The notes under the pieces were generated by a model. The model was not told where the DNA came from. It saw only the letters and a program-made list of their open reading frames with translations, and searched no databases. A DNA stretch of 64,000 nucleotides from an uncultured Chloroflexia bacterium (GTDB lineage Bacteria; Chloroflexota; Limnocylindria; Limnocylindrales; CSP1-4). Shown here one piece after another: positions 9,316-63,538 of this stretch. How positions within the stretch are numbered: position 1 is the stretch's first letter; each line of letters opens with the position of its first letter. The stretch is from NCBI GenBank assembly GCA_963700245.1, contig CAVOWV010000001.1:5666-69665 (forward strand), in the 5' to 3' direction. A program made the position numbers and the translations under genes.

Positions 9316-10080
9316 TCAGGTCTTCTGCTCGTCAGCCACGGACGCACCGGCACCTGCGGGGGGCTCGTCACGGGCACTCGCGATCGCGTCACGCCGGGCC
9401 CGCGCATCCGCGCTCGCGAGCTCCTGTGACGCGCTCTCATGGGCGGCGACGAAGGCCAGGAGCAGGCGGTCCAGGAGGCCGGTGGAGGTGTCGTAGAGCT
9501 CGCCGATACGCGCCCCTTCCACGCCTCGTCGCCGGGCCACGATGCTCAGCTCCGCGAGGAACGGGCGACGGGCTGACACGAACATCGAGACGCCGTCCGC
9601 GAGCGGGACCCCGTGCACCGCAAGGCGCTCGCCAAGGTGCGCCGCAAGATCCACGGCCTCTCGCTCCGCCAGCGCTCGGCGGGGGCCCGTCTCATCGAGA
9701 TGGCGCACCAGTGCGTCCACCAGGCTGCGCCCAACCTCGCGATACGACTCGCGCTCCGAGGCCGGGACCGTCGCGCGCGGGTCCAGCTTGCCTCCGTGGT
9801 GCTCTCCGTAGCGGCGGCGGTAGGCCGCCGAGAGGCGGTCCTGGCTGGCGCCGAGGCTTGCGAGGCCACCGGCCGGCCCGGTGCGACGGGCTGCGATGAG
9901 GCGTTCCAGGGCCCGCCGCTCGAACCGGCGGTGGCCGCCCGGCGTGGTGAACGCGGGAACCCGTCCCTCGTCGGCCCAGCGGCGGAGCGTGTCGGGGTCG
10001 ACACCCAGGAGCCGGCTCGCCTCGCCCAGCGCGAGGCGCTCGGGCAGGGGCCGGTCTGCGGGCTGCCGGGAGTCGGACAC
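9316..10080 (-). CDS. MerR/excisionase-type helix-turn-helix DNA-binding protein with a C-terminal helical sensor-like domain
   Basis: ORF 9316..10080(-). LALGEASRLLGVDPDTLRRWADEGRVPAFTTPGGHRRF matches the excisionase-family HTH pattern. Its stop lies 5 nt before the start of the downstream membrane gene. Confidence 0.75.
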   Translation of the reverse strand: MSDSRQPADRPLPERLALGEASRLLGVDPDTLRRWADEGRVPAFTTPGGHRRFERRALERLIAARRTGPAGGLASLGASQDRLSAAYRRRYGEHHGGKLDPRATVPASERESYREVGRSLVDALVRHLDETGPRRALAEREAVDLAAHLGERLAVHGVPLADGVSMFVSARRPFLAELSIVARRRGVEGARIGELYDTSTGLLDRLLLAFVAAHESASQELASADARARRDAIASARDEPPAGAGASVADEQKT

Positions 10081-10225
10081 TGGTTCTCCGCTGCGGATCC
10101 CGCCCGGCCGCGGGGCGCCGGAATTCTGGGCAAACCTAGGTTCGATTGGCTGGCCGGAGGGCGCGAGTGTAGGGCGGGGGTGTAAGGGGCGTCAACCGAC
10201 CCCGGGCACGCCGGCCGCGGGTGGA

Positions 10226-10579
10226 TCAGGCCGGGACGAACTCGTGGTCGTCGCGGTGGATGCCGTCGCACAGACCCCAGGACGGCGGGTCCGTGGGCAG
10301 CGCGACCGGGCGCATGATCTCGCGTACCTCGCCGCGCCGGCAGAACCGGTAGCCGCGCTCGCCCATCCAGCGCCGCACGCAGGCGGGATCAGCGTGGAAC
10401 TGGTGCGGCCCGGGGTTGACTGGCGTGGACTCGGTCCAGCCGACCGCCACCTCGGGAGCGACGATGTCCAGCAGGTTCACCCGCCAGGGCGTGTCCGGGA
10501 TGACCTCCCGGCAGCCGTCACAGCGGATCGCGACGTTGTCGTTGACGATGGTGCGGATCGTCACGCCCATGATCTCCAT
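10226..10579 (-). CDS. hypothetical protein
   Basis: ORF 10226..10579(-), 117 aa. Its composition is balanced, unlike the Arg/Pro-rich shadow ORFs. No family recognised. Confidence 0.45.
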   Translation of the reverse strand: MEIMGVTIRTIVNDNVAIRCDGCREVIPDTPWRVNLLDIVAPEVAVGWTESTPVNPGPHQFHADPACVRRWMGERGYRFCRRGEVREIMRPVALPTDPPSWGLCDGIHRDDHEFVPA

Positions 10580-56337: not shown

Positions 56338-56607
56338 TCAGGCGGCGGCGGGCATCCCGTCCAGGCCCTCGATCGTCCAGCGCCTGGATCGATGCTGGAA
56401 CGTGAGAGCGAGACGGAGGCCTGGCGTGTCGACCTCGAACAGCGTGCGCGGCCCGGTGATGGCCGGGTAGGCACGAGCCTCGTCGCGGACCGAGACGAGA
56501 CGGGTGACCTGGAGGCGGTCCTCGCCCCACCTGATCTCGCGAGGGATGCCGTTGACCCAATCGGTGCGGACCTGGACGGTGACCGGTGCGACGCGAACCA
56601 TCGCCAT
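56338..56607 (-). CDS. SOS-box-controlled small protein of unknown function (89 aa)
   Basis: ORF 56338..56625(-). I prefer ATG 56607, which has AAGGAG 9 nt upstream. It reads MAMVRVAPVTVQVRTDWVNGIPREIRWGEDRLQVTRLVSVRDEARAYPAITGPRTLFEVDTPGLRLALTFQHRSRRWTIEGLDGMPAAA. It is preceded by its own promoter and two LexA boxes. Confidence 0.7.
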   Translation of the reverse strand: MAMVRVAPVTVQVRTDWVNGIPREIRWGEDRLQVTRLVSVRDEARAYPAITGPRTLFEVDTPGLRLALTFQHRSRRWTIEGLDGMPAAA

Positions 56608-56661
56608 GGTGGTGATCTCCTTCACTCGGCGGTTCGTCGTCAGCCGGGGGCACTCCGGATG

Positions 56662-56675
56662 CGAACGCTTGTTCG
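56662..56675. promoter_or_regulatory. LexA (SOS) box CGAACGCTTGTTCG, promoter-proximal and downstream of the -10 element
   Basis: Perfect CGAAC-N4-GTTCG palindrome, 55 nt upstream of ATG 56607. Confidence 0.8.
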
Positions 56676-56686
56676 TTTCTGGCCTA

Positions 56687-56716
56687 ACGCTAGACCGAAC
56701 AGGTGTTCGATGTCAA
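56687..56716 (-). promoter_or_regulatory. candidate sigma-70-type promoter TTGACA-N18-TAGCGT driving the small ORF
   Basis: The minus strand reads CTTGACATCGAACACCTGTTCGGTCTAGCGT. The -35 element is at 56711-56716 and the -10 element at 56687-56692. Confidence 0.6.
56696..56709. promoter_or_regulatory. LexA (SOS) box CGAACAGGTGTTCG, inside the promoter spacer
   Basis: Perfect CGAAC-N4-GTTCG palindrome between the -35 and -10 elements of the minus-strand promoter. Confidence 0.8.
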
Positions 56717-56953
56717 GCGTCGTGAGCGAAGGATCGGCGATTGCTGTGACAGGTTGCGTGTCACCGGGCTCGGAGGGGCCCGAGCGACTCGCCTCGGGGT
56801 CAGATCGCAGGGTTCGGCGAGGAGCTGGGGCGCGATCCTGCACGAATTGGGGTCGAGCCCCTCGTGCCGGCCGGCCGTTTGACACGAGCACGAGTCAGCC
56901 TCTGCTCGTCTTGCGCGTGCGCCATCAAAACTCCTCTCCGGGCGCTGGGTCGA

Positions 56954-58274
56954 TTACGGGCGCTGGGTCGACCCACTCCTCGTCGATGACGTCCCGCCCC
57001 GGGTCCCCCGCCGCGGCTCCTCCGTCCGACGTCGTCGCCCTGTTGGCGCCTCCGGCACGCCGAGCCGGCCCTCCACCGCGGAGTTGGGGTCGCGTTCGAA
57101 GACCGTCGGCACGCCGGCCCGGACGAGCCGCCCGCGGGTCACCGCCCGTTCGCCGTACTTGCGCCGGATCGAGTCCATCGCCTCCGCCGCCTGGTGCCGC
57201 TTCGGATCCTCGTCAGCCCCGAACAGCTCCAGCTGCTCGCGATCCCGGAAGTTGGACGCGGTCACGCCCACCAGCCGGATCCGCTGGCCATGGAGCTCGC
57301 GCCGCAGGAGCACCAGGGCGGCCTCGTAGATCGGCTCGGTGAGGTCGCCCGGAACCTCGAGCGTCACCTGGCGGGTGATCGTGGCGAATGACGAGTCACG
57401 CAGCTTGAGGGTGATCGTCGCCGCCTTGAGCCCCGCCGCGCGCAGCCGCCACGCCACGCCATCGGCCATGCCCAGCAACGTCCGCTCGATGACCTCCCGG
57501 TCCGCGGTGTCGTGCCCGAACGTGTGCTCGTGCCCGATCGACTTGGCCGGATCGCCAGTGGCCACGGGGTCGGCGTCGATCCCGTGCGCGCGCTCGACCA
57601 GCGCCGCACCGTGCTTCCCGAACCGCCGCTCCAGGGCGTCCGGCGGCAGCGCAGCGAGGTCGCCGATCGTCTGGACCCCGAACTCGCGCAGGACAGCGGC
57701 GGTCTTCTCGCCCACGCCCCACAGCCGGGAGATCGGCAGCGGCGCCAGGAACGCCGCCTCCTCCCCGGGCGGCACGACCACGAGCCCGTCCGGCTTGCGC
57801 AGGTCGGACCCGATCTTCGCGACGAGCTTCGTGGCCGCCACGCCCACCGAGGCAGTGAGCCCGACCTCGTCGTGGACCGTCCGCTTGATCACGCGGGCGA
57901 TCGTCTCGCCGTCGCCGAACAGCGCCCGCGACGCGGTCACGTCGAGGAACGCCTCGTCGATGGAGATGGGCTGCACCTGTGGCGTGAACCGCCGGAGGAT
58001 CGCCATGACCTCGCGGCTGGCCGCCTGGTACCTGCGCCCGTCCACCGGCAGGAACACGCCGTGCGGGCAGAGCCGGTACGCCGTCCGCAATGGCATCGCG
58101 GAGTGCACGCCGAAGCGCGCGGGCCTCGTAGCTCGCGGCCGAGACGACTCCCCGCTGCGTCGGATCGGAGCCGCCGACGATCACCGGCCTCCCGCGCAAC
58201 TCCGGCCGGTCGCGCTGCTCCACCGCGGCGAAGAACGCGTCGAGGTCGACGTGGAGGATGGTCCGTGCACTCAC
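56954..58274 (-). CDS. dinB: DNA polymerase IV (Y-family). One frameshift near 58115-58121.
   Basis: ORF 57396..58304(-) gives the N-terminus [30 protein letters not shown]...[11 protein letters not shown]. It then continues [17 protein letters not shown]...[10 protein letters not shown]...LWGVGEKT in ORF 56954..58108(-). The start is either GTG 58274 or ATG 58304. Confidence 0.9.
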
Positions 58275-58362
58275 GGGAGAATTCTGCGCCCCTCGCACCC
58301 ACACCGGCGAGGACGCCGGTTGCTACGCTCTGCGAACGGTCAGCCGCTGCAGTCGAGGGAAG

Positions 58363-59700
58363 ATGGCACACGGGACGGCGATCGAGGAACCGCGACACGG
58401 AGAGGGCGGACGCATGCGCGCCTACCTGGGCGGGACGTACGGCGCGCTCCTGGTCCAGCGCGCGGAGCGCCGCCCGGAGCTGTGGGGGTTTGTCCTCATG
58501 AGCGTCCTCGGGGCGGCCGTGTTCCTCCTGACCGCCGAGAGCGAGCCACAGGCCCTCGACTACTTCAGCCGTCTCGCCGATGCCTTCCTCCAAGGCCGCT
58601 ACTGGCTCGATGAGGCACCGTCCTGGCTCAACGAGCTGATCCCGGCCGGCGACGGCCGCTGGTACGTCCCCTACCCGCCGATGCCAGCGATCCTGGCGCT
58701 CCCCTTCGTGGCCGTGTTCGGGCGCGAGTTCCCGGCCCAGACGTACAGCGCGCTCTACGGCGGCCTCGCCGTCGGCCTCGTCTACCTCGTCCTCGGACGG
58801 CTCGGCCTGGCGCTCCGGGTGCGCGATCGGCTGGCACTGACCGCCGTCTTCGCGTTCGGGACCTGCTTCTGGTTCATTGCGATCGGAGGCTCGGCCTGGT
58901 ACTTCGCCCACGTGGCCGCCGTGCTGCTCCTGGCGGCGTCCGTGCTGTGCGCGCTCACGAAGCGGCCGGCGTGGGTGCGGGACTGCTGCTCGGGCTGGCG
59001 GCGCTGGCGCGCCTGCCGGTAGGCCTCGCGCTCCCGTTCGTGCTCGCGGCCCAGCTGGGCTTCCCGGGGCTCGCGGCGCTTCGCGCGGTTGACCGTGGAG
59101 CGCTCGTCCGAACCATCGTCGTGTTCGGGCTCGGGCTCGCTGGCCGGCCCTGAGGGGGCATCGTACCTCGCCTACGTCGCGTTCAACCTCGCCCGCTGGG
59201 GCACGATCCTCGACCAGTCGTACGTCGCCATCCCGGGCGTGCTCGAGGACCCCATCTACGCGAAGCACGGGATCCTCTCGCCCTGGTACATCCCGCGCAA
59301 CGTGTTCGCGATCCTGTTCCGCAGCTGGAACTACGTGGACGACGCACCGTGGCTGCAGCCATCGTGGTGGGGGCCTCGGCATCTTCCTCACGACACCGCT
59401 CTACCTGTGGCTGCTCAAGGCACGCCCGCGGACGCCGATGGTGGCCTGGGCGCTGCTCGCGACCGCCATCGTGTCGATCCCGATCATCACCCACGGCAAC
59501 GTCGGGATCACGCAGTTCGGCTACCGGTTCAGCCTGGACTTCCAGCTGCTGCTGTTCGTGATCCTCGCGACCGTCGTCGCCCGCGGCTGGACCAGGCTGA
59601 TGGCCGCGGCGGCCGTCGCCTCGATCATCATCTGCGCCTACGCCGTGTGGGCGATCTCGATCGACTTCGGCGTTGGCGGTGACAGGAGGCCGCGTCCGGC
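58363..59700 (+). pseudogene. GT-C-type membrane glycosyltransferase-like protein (ArnT/PMT_2-like). At least three frameshifts, one in the GGGGG run 59369-59373.
   Basis: The protein can be followed through four frames. The pieces are LWGFVLMSVLGAAVFLLTAE...YPPMPAILALPFVAVFG...FGTCFWFIAIGGSAWYFAHVAAVLLLAASVL, then VGAGLLLGLAALARLP, then AYVAFNLARWGTILDQSY...WLQPSWWG, and finally GLGIFLTTPLYLWLLKARPRTPMVAWALLATAIV...VWAISIDF. Confidence 0.6.
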
Positions 59701-59719
59701 TAAGGCGTCGAGGGCGACG

Positions 59720-60510
59720 CCCGGCCAGCGTACGCGGCGGACGGCATCGGGGCGCTGGGCGTCGGTCTGGTGCCCGGTCCGCGTACACGCTGCGCATGCT
59801 GGCGGACGTGGGCTTCTGGGACACGGCCGTGTTCCAAGGGGCCGCACCGGTCTGGGCCTAACGCATCCAACGGGCTACCCCACATACCTGCCGCTCGGCT
59901 GGCTGTGGACGCACTATGCGATGACGCGAACCCGGAAACACGATGAACCTGCTCGCCGCGGTCACGGGGGCGGGCGCAGTCGCGATGGCGATCTCTGGGC
60001 GCGGATCGTGCGGGAATGGCTGCCGCAGCGAGCTGCGGCGCTGGCCGGCGGCCTGAGCTCGCGATCTGGCGGACGGCGACCCGAGCAGACCCGCATCCGC
60101 TGCACGTGCTGATGGCCTGGCGATCATGCTGGTGCTCGCCTGACCGGCGCAGGGACTGGCGCCCCCTGGTCTGGCCGCCTGCTTCGGCCTGGCGATGGGC
60201 AACCACCTGCTGACAAGCATGTTGGCGCCCGGCATCGCGGTGTTCGTGTTCACCCGGCGGCCGGCCATACTGCGCCGGCCAGCGGTCGTGCTTGCCGCTG
60301 CCGGGTGCGTCGCGCTGGGACTCCTGGTCTACGCCTACGTCCCGACCCGCGCCGCCGCCAACCCGCCCATCCACCACGATTTCGCCCCCACGACGCCGGA
60401 GCTGATCCTGCGCTACGTCCTAGGTCAGGACTTCTCGGGCTCCATGGGCTTCCTCAGCGCCCGAGGGCCCGGGGCCACCGCCCGCGAGCTGCGCAGGTTC
60501 GCGGCGCAGT
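59720..60510 (+). pseudogene. DUF2723-like membrane glycosyltransferase fragment. At least four frameshifts, and 3'-truncated.
   Basis: Pieces in three frames: AYTLRMLADVGFWDTAVFQGAAPVW, GLTHPTGYPTYLPLGWLWTHYA, NLLAAVTGAGAVAMAI and FGLAMGNHLLTSMLAPGIAVFVF...YAYVPTRAAANPPIHHDFAPTTPELILRYVLGQDFSG. From memory this matches the DUF2723 N-terminal pattern (HPPGYP, GNH, RxQY). No continuation is visible after about 60510. Confidence 0.45.
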
Positions 60511-62835: not shown

Positions 62836-62863
62836 TTGACATCGAACGTCCGTTCGGTATGAT
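62836..62863 (+). promoter_or_regulatory. lexA promoter TTGACA-N16-TATGAT with a LexA box (CGAACGTCCGTTCG, 62843-62856) in the spacer
   Basis: Read directly: TTGACAtCGAACGTCCGTTCGgTATGAT. AAGGAG lies 6 nt upstream of GTG 62888. Confidence 0.85.
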
Positions 62864-62887: not shown

Positions 62888-63538
62888 GTGACCCGTCACG
62901 ACGCGGAACGCAAGCGGAAGATCATGGACGTGATCGCAGCGACGATCCGCGCGCGCGGCTATCCCCCGTCCGTGCGTGAGATCGCGAAGGCAGTCGGCCT
63001 CGCGTCCACGTCGGCGGTGCACCACCACCTCCAGGTCCTCGAGAAGGAGGGCTACCTGGAGCGGGGGGCGGCCCAGTCGCGGGCCATCCGCCTCACGCCC
63101 ACGGCGGCGCTGATGCTGGGCCTGGGTCCGGAGCTCGTGCCCCAGTCGATGGCCAGCGAGGCTCACGCCCTGCCGATCATCGGGGAGATCGCGGCCGGCG
63201 GTCCCATCGAGGCCTACCAGGACGTGTCGGAGACGCTCGCCGTCCCGGACATCCTCGCGCCGGCCGGTGAGGCCTACGTGTTGCGCGTGCGTGGGGACTC
63301 GATGATCGAGGCCCACATCGCGGACGGGGACTTCGTCGTCATCCGCCAGCAGGACACCGCCCGGGACGGAGACATCGTCGTCGCCCAGGTGGAGGAGAAC
63401 GCCGTCACGCTGAAGCGCTTCTTCCGCGAGAAGGACCGGATCCGCCTCCAGCCCGCCAATCCCAACTACCCGCCCCAGTTCTATCCGTCGGTGCGGATCC
63501 AGGGAAGGCTCATCGGGGTCATCCGGAGGCTGGACTGA
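62888..63538 (+). CDS. lexA: LexA repressor
   Basis: ORF 62888..63538(+). The winged HTH is PSVREIAKAVGLASTSAVHHHLQVLEKEGYL. The cleavage site is EIAAGGP, and the catalytic residues lie in VRGDSM and LKRF. Confidence 0.95.
   Translation: MTRHDAERKRKIMDVIAATIRARGYPPSVREIAKAVGLASTSAVHHHLQVLEKEGYLERGAAQSRAIRLTPTAALMLGLGPELVPQSMASEAHALPIIGEIAAGGPIEAYQDVSETLAVPDILAPAGEAYVLRVRGDSMIEAHIADGDFVVIRQQDTARDGDIVVAQVEENAVTLKRFFREKDRIRLQPANPNYPPQFYPSVRIQGRLIGVIRRLD

Follow-up and report, generated by a model that had tools for sequence, protein, structure and literature searches.

The locus and its small gene

At the locus considered here, a short open reading frame (ORF) lies on the minus strand next to dinB, within the window that was analysed, a stretch of 64 kb that also contains lexA. 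The genes concerned are the following:

56338-56607, minus strand: coding sequence of 89 aa (ATG at 56607, stop codon at 56338-56340), predicted ImuB-C-like stand-alone protein
56954-58304, minus strand: dinB, encoding a Y-family DNA polymerase IV (Pfam IMS, IMS_HHH and IMS_C; NCBIfam Pol IV), the presumed partner
62888-63538, plus strand: lexA ORF

The small gene is real and conserved. The same ATG serves as the start in all 86 homologous loci; among the 86 homologues the dN/dS of about 0.2 indicates purifying selection, and codon position 3 varies 3.3 times more than positions 1 and 2. An overlapping frame of 128 aa, starting at GTG 56653, is rejected because this codon-position variation fits the 89-aa frame. 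The ORF, which an earlier note on this DNA had called an orphan, belongs to a family of more than 1,300 database proteins; at least 230 species genomes from the Chloroflexota class Limnocylindria encode relatives, all of which carry the label "hypothetical protein". Protein identity amounts to 75-98% in the best 120 database matches and to 67-92% across the species genomes that were fetched.

Some matches were set aside. The representative search gave the long-protein matches P0176 and P0236, with P0244 as a third; on reading, P0176 and P0236 turn out to be unrelated repeat proteins. Three others (P0161, P0221 and P0224) result from reading through a frameshift, and P0189, in which a peptidase-like protein is joined to the last 60 residues of the ORF, is probably an artefact of gene calling or assembly. 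A tblastn search of family members against plasmids gave nothing useful. Neither the stretch between dinB and the small ORF nor the DNA downstream of the latter shows an intrinsic terminator.

Promoter and predicted LexA operators

The region upstream of the small gene is densely packed with conserved elements, listed here together with the operator of lexA as a reference:

56746-56764, unstranded: palindrome GTGACA-N7-TGTCAC, whose centre lies about 75 nt upstream of the expected transcription start
56711-56716, minus strand: -35 element TTGACA, the TGA of which is the dinB stop codon in many relatives (for example, loci L001 and L031)
56696-56709, unstranded: LexA box 1, CGAACACCTGTTCG, predicted operator, a perfect CGAAC-N4-GTTCG in the promoter spacer
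56687-56692, minus strand: weak -10 element TAGCGT, kept as TAG[C/T]GT in relatives
56662-56675, unstranded: LexA box 2, CGAACAAGCGTTCG, predicted operator, beginning 11 nt past the -10 element, over the expected transcription start
56644-56653, minus strand: 5'-leader motif GTGCCCCCGG, kept in 82 upstream regions and still discernible at distant loci
56617-56622, minus strand: Shine-Dalgarno sequence AAGGAG, 9 nt before the ATG, with GAAGGAG invariant in 82 aligned upstream regions
62843-62856, unstranded: LexA box of the lexA promoter, inside TTGACA-N16-TATGAT just upstream of lexA

The two promoter elements are separated by 18 nt, and a generic sigma-70 scan calls no promoter at the small gene because the -10 element agrees with TATAAT at only three of six positions. 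Two perfect boxes of the organism's own operator type overlap this promoter, and the placement of a box in the spacer is shared with the promoter of lexA. CGAAC-N4-GTTCG is the LexA box of Gram-positive bacteria and also of Dehalococcoides within the Chloroflexota. The window holds exactly three perfect copies, against 0.08 expected from shuffles, and none of 100 shuffles of the window gave three. Furthermore, a box is present inside the TTGACR spacer in all 83 non-identical upstream regions and a second one, with at most one mismatch, in 78 of them; the design is still seen at 35-42% protein identity. In 82 aligned upstream regions, conservation of the boxes far exceeds that of the DNA around them. 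The small gene thus looks LexA-controlled, and we infer that LexA binds at these boxes and that DNA damage induces the gene. For the 5' leader, no consensus RNA structure is predicted.

With one small correction, all that the earlier note had read from the sequence of this region is borne out: the TTGACA-N18-TAGCGT arrangement on the minus strand with two perfect boxes, one of them in the spacer, the ribosome-binding site 9 nt before the ATG of an 89-aa ORF, the matching design at lexA, which supplies the third and last perfect box in the 64 kb, and the appearance of a LexA-controlled gene. The correction concerns the position of the second box, from about 12 nt to 11 nt past the -10 element.

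The adjacent polymerase and the gene order

In the window, dinB is spread over two frames because of a 1-nt insertion near 58115, an extra C by comparison with locus L007. Four parts of its product are of interest:

58218-58253, minus strand: DinB catalytic motif HVDLDAFF, present
57935-57964, minus strand: DinB catalytic motif SIDEAFLDV, present
57131-57202, minus strand: RecA-N-terminus-like (RecA-NT-like) motif of 24 residues in the DinB C-terminal region, found with hhalign
57086-57109, minus strand: DinB tail motif P-x-x-F-E-R-D-P, at least 90% conserved in 76 distinct DinB tails and also found at the distant loci L097 and L098

The catalytic Asp and Glu residues are retained. In an hhalign comparison with residues 7-30 of E. 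coli RecA, the RecA-NT-like motif scores 22.0 (P = 5e-4), while shuffles score 8.1 +/- 1.8 with a maximum of 15.3; such a motif marks the partner polymerase in the PolY-RecA-[ImuB-C] scheme of Timinskas and Venclovas (2019, 2026). Pfam DUF4113 is undetected in DinB. The conserved tail may be where the small protein docks.

From dinB, the gene order almost always runs through the promoter with its boxes and the small ORF to the FTCD_C gene, and this is seen down to 35% protein identity. The earlier note had proposed neighbourhood conservation as a check, and the succession of dinB, boxes and ORF proves to be conserved in Limnocylindria. In nearly all of the 86 loci dinB is directly upstream of the small ORF, with one or two genes in between in some species, and in many loci lexA lies within a few kilobases, so that these loci present an adjacent translesion polymerase, often with lexA, as stand-alone ImuB-C loci do. 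The dinB gene of the window has no LexA box with up to one mismatch within 250 nt upstream (the earlier note had found no perfect one within about 150 nt), and among 75 species only 3 have a perfect box at dinB. All of the family lies in a single syntenic block, to which the unrelated FTCD_C gene also belongs; the adjacency of dinB could therefore be an inherited order and not a functional coupling.

Similarity to the C-terminal domain of ImuB

The earlier note had likened the product to DUF6504-like proteins. The nature of that domain can be read from S. meliloti ImuB, the product of a gene that lies between imuA and dnaE2. This protein matches DUF6504 at residues 430-500, and its C-terminal segment retrieves PF20114-bearing fragments named "protein ImuB" or "DUF6504 family protein"; some ImuB genes are also given the latter name by PGAP. 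By these matches, DUF6504 (PF20114) is the C-terminal domain of ImuB, ImuB-C. A literature search found no paper that mentions DUF6504 or PF20114.

Strict membership of the Pfam family fails because no member of the small-ORF family reaches the gathering threshold of 24.2 bits. The best one, P0132, scores 22.3 bits (E = 1.7e-4), followed by P0190 (16.4 bits) and P0128 (14.2 bits), all three matching the same part of the model. The protein of the window itself has no match in Pfam or NCBIfam at E <= 1, and an NCBIfam search with 33 family members gave scattered chance matches only. The model is strict even on true members, since the bona fide ImuB reaches only 17.2 bits.

A relationship at the level of the superfamily emerges from hhalign with a diverse ImuB-C profile. 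The family alignment scores 27.5 (P = 3.3e-4, HH probability 38%) over the full length, in 75-83 co-linear columns, and none of 400 shuffled controls (200 column and 200 block shuffles) matches that score. The clear signal comes from this more diverse profile only: the family compared with a single ImuB-C sequence is not significant, nor is the comparison with a narrow rhizobial ImuB-C profile (P = 0.059), and the family HMM scores ImuB-C sequences no better than shuffled decoys. The conserved residues P22, E43, R54 and W77 align to conserved ImuB-C positions, W77 pairing with the Trp of W-x-x-x-G and R54 with the Arg of R-D-Y. Within the family, W77 and R41 never vary, and R54 hardly does. 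Like ImuB-C, the small protein has a C-terminal Trp, at least two basic residues and no catalytic pattern. The resemblance to DUF6504 thus stands for the superfamily and falls short for the Pfam family.

The predicted fold is in agreement. An AF2 model of the small protein has seven strands and no helix (pLDDT 79.7), which fits the beta-rich product with conserved Trp and Arg foreseen by the earlier note, and an AF2 model of ImuB-C is all-beta with the same strand order. ImuB-C itself is described as a beta-barrel of a new fold without close PDB relatives (PMC12926913). As modelled, the ORF product would likewise be a domain of about 90 residues, mainly beta-strands, without known fold relatives: Foldseek gives no match at E <= 0.001 in the PDB (best E 0.39) or BFVD (best E 0.05). 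In BFVD an uncharacterised phage protein comes first (TM 0.58); it is absent from the 50 best BFVD matches of the ImuB-C model, a model that has no significant match there either. A comparison of the family profile with the sequences of solved structures gave one chance match only.

Taken together, the small ORF probably encodes, though we say so with some reserve, a divergent stand-alone member of the ImuB-C superfamily that acts as an SOS-controlled partner of DinB. The earlier idea of a DinB accessory fits this evidence.

Comparison with known systems

The kind of protein is not new, although the earlier note had taken it as uncharacterised. Stand-alone ImuB-C proteins encoded beside dinB and lexA were described in 2013 and 2019, and this is the commonest published context (PMC3765255, PMC6511836). 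Since 2013 such proteins have been predicted to serve error-prone polymerases, either as small subunits or as recruiters. In these papers, "Chloroflex" has 0 occurrences and the Limnocylindria lineage is unmentioned.

The likeness to these systems is considerable. The proteins are about 90 aa long and all-beta, with a conserved C-terminal Trp and basic residues and without a catalytic pattern; an active DinB-type polymerase with a RecA-NT-like motif is adjacent, the locus is LexA-linked, and the neighbourhood is devoid of imuA and dnaE2. Judged by their sequences, the neighbouring DinB and small protein match the published scheme of Y-family polymerase, RecA and stand-alone ImuB-C. The differences concern sequence and control. 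Here the sequence has diverged beyond the reach of Pfam DUF6504 and the C-terminus is a conserved Ala-Ala. Whereas loci of the Geobacter type have lexA, imuB-C and polY in that order in one SOS operon, here dinB precedes the imuB-C-like gene, the two-operator promoter of the latter lies at or over the dinB end, and dinB is mostly without a box. The local twist is that the predicted LexA boxes guard the small gene and not dinB.

ImuB proteins such as that of S. meliloti pSymA and M. tuberculosis Rv3394c have the same succession of Y-family polymerase domain, RecA-NT-like motif and ImuB-C, and dinB plus the small ORF read like an ImuB split over two genes. However, ImuB is a single chain that has a dead polymerase domain and acts together with ImuA and DnaE2, whereas the DinB here has its catalytic residues. 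UmuD' of Pol V and YolD/YqjX are also small SOS-induced accessory proteins of Y-family polymerases, thought to bind the conserved tail past the RecA-NT-like motif (PMC6511836). They differ in fold (an SH3-like core; self-cleavage in UmuD), and the small ORF matches neither Pfam Peptidase_S24 nor YolD. In E. coli, RecN and other SOS proteins carry a C-terminal Ala-Ala tag for ClpXP; an -AA ending is found in the protein of the window and in 81 of the 86 homologues.

Proposed mechanism and its implications

In the reading that we favour, LexA would occupy both operators in the undamaged cell, the one in the promoter spacer as well as the one at the transcription start, and the small gene would stay off. 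Upon DNA damage, RecA-stimulated cleavage of LexA would release the gene, and the small basic protein would then join the adjacent, catalytically intact DinB, probably together with RecA, in a "split ImuB-like" translesion complex. Physical binding of the small protein to DinB or RecA is here inferred. Since dinB of this clade usually has no LexA box, the damage signal would reach the pair mainly through the small subunit. By analogy with other SOS proteins, the terminal Ala-Ala may serve as a protease tag by which the small protein is cleared afterwards.

A more far-reaching version is possible, but we hold it only tentatively. The SOS response of Limnocylindria would switch on only an ImuB-C-type licensing subunit and not the polymerase; this subunit would make a LexA-independent DinB RecA-dependent and mutasome-like, it would be quickly removed by means of its Ala-Ala tag, and a second regulator at GTGACA-N7-TGTCAC would add a further input.

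We know of no stand-alone ImuB-C protein that has been characterised biochemically. The locus adds to these proteins a large unannotated branch, present in at least 230 species of a Chloroflexota class abundant in soil and freshwater, whose divergent stand-alone members are missed by the Pfam DUF6504 model. The arrangement is an unusually clean one, with predicted LexA operators on the small gene alone and a catalytically intact DinB usually without them. If the small protein is a damage-dependent switch of DinB, this would be a compact system for testing ImuB-C function, and if so, induced mutagenesis would be controllable at the level of an accessory subunit.

Alternative explanations

The small protein might instead act on its own and not as a subunit of DinB: as a damage sensor or DNA-binding factor it would recognise lesions or stalled forks and bring in whatever repair enzymes are available. 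This was the original idea of Aravind and co-workers for ImuB-C, and their paper proposes DNA binding and lists polymerase-free contexts (PMC3765255). The very basic character of the protein (pI 10.96, 13 Arg and 0 Lys), its conserved Arg and Trp and the lack of a catalytic pattern would suit such a role, and so would the gene's own promoter and the genes that separate it from dinB in some species. Against this, ImuB-C is modelled as a protein-protein module whose partners are ImuA and DnaE2 (PMC12926913), and the DinB here has the RecA-NT motif and conserved tail expected for a polymerase with a small subunit. We therefore regard a free sensor as rather unlikely, but worth serious consideration.

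It is improbable that, like ImuB-C in the mutasome, the protein serves another polymerase (the replicative DnaE, or a DnaE2 whose gene lies elsewhere) and that the adjacency of dinB is historical. The ImuB-C domain is a main DnaE2 contact of ImuB, and for some DnaE2 proteins the only link is to a stand-alone ImuB-C (PMC12926913), but dnaE2 and imuA are absent from the 64-kb window and the small gene is beside dinB in nearly every locus.

Slightly less probable again is a spurious similarity to ImuB-C, in which case the ORF would encode some other type of lineage-specific SOS protein, perhaps a damage checkpoint protein or a division inhibitor such as SulA, YneA, ChiZ or SidA. SOS regulons commonly contain a small, poorly conserved division inhibitor, and in the present family no member passes curated thresholds and the fold has no significant match. 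The earlier note had offered this option, for which nothing was found: the small ORF has no Pfam or NCBIfam match to SulA, YneA, ChiZ, SidA or DivS and no LysM-type domain, and its longest hydrophobic run is 4 residues, which leaves no membrane segment. Furthermore, its high conservation is unlike that of fast-evolving inhibitors, and the ImuB-C alignment outscores every shuffle, with conserved residues falling on conserved positions.

Finally, that the boxes are not LexA operators, or that LexA control is marginal and a regulator at the upstream palindrome mainly governs the gene, might be argued from that palindrome and the weak -10 element, but it is very improbable given the same box at the same position in the lexA promoter, the known type of the box and its conservation relative to the flanking DNA. 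The palindrome GTGACA-N7-TGTCAC is possibly the site of a second regulator: it occurs once in the window, 78 of 83 upstream regions have it with at most two mismatches, and loci L004 and L005, in which dinB is not immediately adjacent, retain it.

Promoter and putative operators of the small gene

The small gene downstream of dinB has a promoter of its own, furnished with two perfect copies of CGAAC-N4-GTTCG, the presumed LexA operator. Its control region is made up of the following elements:

56746-56764, perfect palindrome GTGACA-N7-TGTCAC, about 30 nt upstream of the -35 element
56711-56716, minus strand, -35 element TTGACA
56696-56709, box 1, CGAACACCTGTTCG, perfect, inside the promoter spacer (18 nt, minus strand), which encloses it
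56687-56692, minus strand, -10 element TAGCGT
56662-56675, box 2, CGAACAAGCGTTCG, perfect, beginning 11 nt past the -10 element
56644-56653, minus strand, leader motif GTGCCCCCGG, conserved among the upstream regions of relatives
56617-56622, minus strand, AAGGAG, 9 nt ahead of the ATG
56607, minus strand, ATG of the 89-codon ORF, which ends at 56338

The coordinate check bears out the earlier note, which had described this promoter (-35, 18-nt spacer, -10, AAGGAG and ATG 56607) with its two perfect boxes, a box in the spacer of the lexA promoter, and a dinB without a box upstream. Indeed, a third perfect box (62843-62856) is located within TTGACA-N16-TATGAT just upstream of lexA, so that the box-in-spacer design is common to both promoters, and no box with at most one mismatch occurs in the 250 nt upstream of the window dinB. 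Only 0.08 copies of the perfect box are expected in the 64-kb window, against the three found. With 3 of 6 positions agreeing with the consensus, the -10 element of the small gene is weak, which explains why a generic promoter scan makes no call here; among relatives the hexamer is kept as TAG[C/T]GT. Boxes with one mismatch are likewise more frequent in the window than chance predicts (11 versus 2.6 expected). Two such LexA-like boxes, at 10131-10144 and 10237-10250 and thus about 100 nt apart, precede an HTH gene of MerR/excisionase type (9316-10080, minus strand).

Conservation of the control region

Among 83 non-identical upstream regions, every one has a box with at most one mismatch within the spacer of a TTGACR -35 element; at least one perfect box is found in 82, and two or more boxes in 78. 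The two-box design persists in the most distant members (35-42% protein identity), in which the box has become AGAAC-N4-GTTCG/GTTCA or CGTAC-N4-GTTCG while both positions are kept (L096:195-260 and L097:430-500, loci in the genomes of relatives). As judged from these sequences, the operator may have evolved within the class Limnocylindria. The palindrome GTGACA-N7-TGTCAC, present as a single copy in the window, recurs with at most two mismatches in 78 of the 83 regions, also where it falls within the coding end of dinB or where dinB is not adjacent, and is missing in the loci furthest removed (L006, L096, L097). A second regulator may bind this palindrome. The leader motif, which lies between box 2 and the ribosome-binding site, persists as GAGTGCCCC(C)GG in distant relatives as well; structure prediction for the 5' leader gives no consensus RNA fold.

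The gene family and its neighbourhood

A search of 5.8 billion proteins yielded 486 relatives (75-98% identity among the matches listed), most of them exactly 89 aa long, all labelled 'hypothetical' and all from metagenome-assembled genomes of Chloroflexota or Candidatus Limnocylindrales. A profile search extends their number to 1,374. Only 127 clusters match when 1.84 billion cluster representatives are searched exhaustively, the most distant full-length members being 36-50% identical. The gene is present in 230 species according to one scan of species-representative genomes, from which 80 loci were taken. Over 86 loci, the same ATG start is used throughout, codon position 3 varies 3.3 times more than positions 1 and 2, and the median dN/dS is about 0.2; since these data fit the 89-aa ORF, an overlapping 128-aa frame was rejected as coding.

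The protein is strongly basic (pI 10.96, 13 Arg, no Lys) and contains no hydrophobic segment. In the family alignment V13, P22, R41, E43, A46, G52, P53, R54 and W77 are invariant or nearly so, and a tail of variable length closes with Ala-Ala in 81 of 86 copies. One subtilisin-like protein of 516 aa (P0189) has at its C-terminus the final 60 residues of the small protein with their -AA ending; this fusion is probably an artefact of gene calling or assembly.

The gene block consists of lexA, a DUF1232 gene, rplI, dinB, the ORF and an FTCD_C gene, followed by folD and fhs; imuA, dnaE2 and recA do not occur within the window. In nearly all loci dinB is the direct upstream neighbour on the same strand, with a median of 110 nt from its stop to the ATG of the ORF. 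In many species (L001:5790-5900, L031 and most of L007-L086) translation of dinB stops at the TGA of the -35 TTGACA; the polymerase gene therefore ends inside the promoter of the next gene, and the palindrome falls within the dinB 3' end. In a few species one or two genes lie between dinB and the ORF, and promoter, boxes and palindrome are still kept. A perfect LexA box of its own precedes dinB in only 3 of 75 species, and one with at most one mismatch in 5. Distant members display the same order dinB, ORF, FTCD_C, which makes the family one orthologous group in one conserved block and limits the weight of the adjacency as sole proof of a functional tie. With the whole family in a single block, the adjacency may be merely inherited synteny. 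Gene order alone is compatible with this, and most weight is therefore carried by the motifs in DinB and the homology to ImuB-C.

Probable relationship to ImuB-C

The ImuB-C superfamily was defined by Aravind and co-workers as a beta-rich domain occurring at the C-terminus of ImuB and also stand-alone, with a highly conserved C-terminal Trp and conserved basic residues; the stand-alone genes mostly adjoin dinB, often with lexA (PMC3765255). Timinskas and Venclovas described systems of a polymerase with a RecA-N-terminus-like motif and a stand-alone ImuB-C, and later modelled ImuB-C as a beta-barrel of new fold (PMC6511836, PMC12926913). The small protein is probably a divergent stand-alone member of this superfamily.

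The window protein has no match in Pfam or NCBIfam. Three of 33 members match a single Pfam family, DUF6504 (PF20114), just under its 24.2-bit threshold, co-linearly and in the same part of the model:

Matches of homologous proteins to the DUF6504 model (103 positions)
P0132, residues 18-80, model 24-100, 22.3 bits, E 1.7e-4
P0190, residues 15-74, model 20-85, 16.4 bits, E 0.011
P0128, residues 20-73, model 25-85, 14.2 bits, E 0.052

DUF6504 is ImuB-C: ImuB from the imuA-imuB-dnaE2 located on S. meliloti pSymA matches it at residues 430-500 (17.2 bits), the C-terminal 98 residues of this ImuB retrieve 'protein ImuB' or 'DUF6504 family protein' fragments carrying PF20114, and some plasmid ImuB genes are named 'DUF6504 family protein' by PGAP. 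Bona fide ImuB scores no better against the model than the ORF family does.

Comparing the family with just one ImuB-C sequence, or with a narrow profile from rhizobia, gave nothing significant. With a broader profile, to which eight divergent plasmid-borne ImuB C-termini were added, hhalign gives a score of 27.5 (P = 3.3e-4, probability 38%) over 75-83 co-linear columns, from the first strand through the terminal W-x-x-x-G. Column-shuffled profiles reach 11.3 +/- 2.1 (maximum 18.2) and six-column block shuffles 14.2 +/- 2.5 (maximum 22.8), none of 400 shuffles attaining 27.5. P22, E43, R54 and W77 of the ORF align with the conserved ImuB-C positions P24/25, E49, R61 and W92.

The AF2 models of the ORF protein (all-beta, seven strands, pLDDT 79.7) and of ImuB-C (pLDDT 81.6) have the same strand order, a long first strand and a Trp in the last strand. 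Neither PDB nor BFVD yields a significant match to the ORF model. Its best structural match is BFVD A0A8S5PG70, an uncharacterised 100-aa Siphoviridae protein (TM 0.58/0.52, 88 columns, E = 0.05), which on the model may be a phage-borne relative; it stands outside the top 50 that the ImuB-C model retrieves from BFVD, and the two models could not be linked through a shared match there.

DinB as presumed partner

The adjacent DinB contains the catalytic motifs HVDLDAFF and SIDEAFLDV. A C-terminal segment of 24 residues aligns with residues 7-30, the oligomerisation motif, of E. coli RecA (score 22.0, P = 5e-4; shuffles 8.1 +/- 1.8, maximum 15.3). It is followed by a strongly conserved P-x-x-F-E-R-D-P and a variable acidic tail. 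The published layout of small-subunit polymerases (polymerase, RecA-NT-like motif, conserved tail, separate ImuB-C gene) is the same, and by sequence dinB and the ORF would resemble an ImuB split in two with the polymerase active.

A free damage-sensing DNA-binding role, as proposed in 2013, is possible too, and the charge of the protein speaks for it. Pairing with DnaE or DnaE2 in place of DinB is conceivable and finds no support here, nor does a role as division inhibitor.

In the proposed mechanism, LexA on box 1 in the -35/-10 spacer and box 2 at the start site would repress the small gene until DNA damage leads to LexA cleavage. The basic beta-barrel protein would then bind the DinB tail and/or RecA and alter how DinB is recruited to, or acts at, lesions. 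SOS input would thus reach DinB through its small subunit, since dinB itself mostly lacks a box. By analogy with E. coli RecN, the C-terminal Ala-Ala is possibly a ClpXP-type tag that limits the lifetime of the small protein.

A polymerase with a stand-alone ImuB-C is an already described, predicted kind of system. New are the lineage, Limnocylindria being absent from PMC3765255, PMC6511836 and PMC12926913, the sequence divergence past detection by Pfam, the gene order with a private two-operator promoter fused to the dinB end, the dinB without boxes, the Ala-Ala C-terminus and the additional palindrome.

In the window, one C more than in the close relative L007, within a GCGCGC run (58100-58130, minus strand), splits dinB into two frames, and the frame of its 3' tail (56954-57060) differs from the one in L008; either the assembly has an indel here or dinB is a true pseudogene in this genome. 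Divergent from dinB lies a membrane protein gene (58258-60112, plus strand) that is a single 416-aa gene in L001 and corresponds here to three overlapping or adjacent ORFs (58258-59022, 59089-59682 and 59438-60112), which suggests further indels in this assembly.
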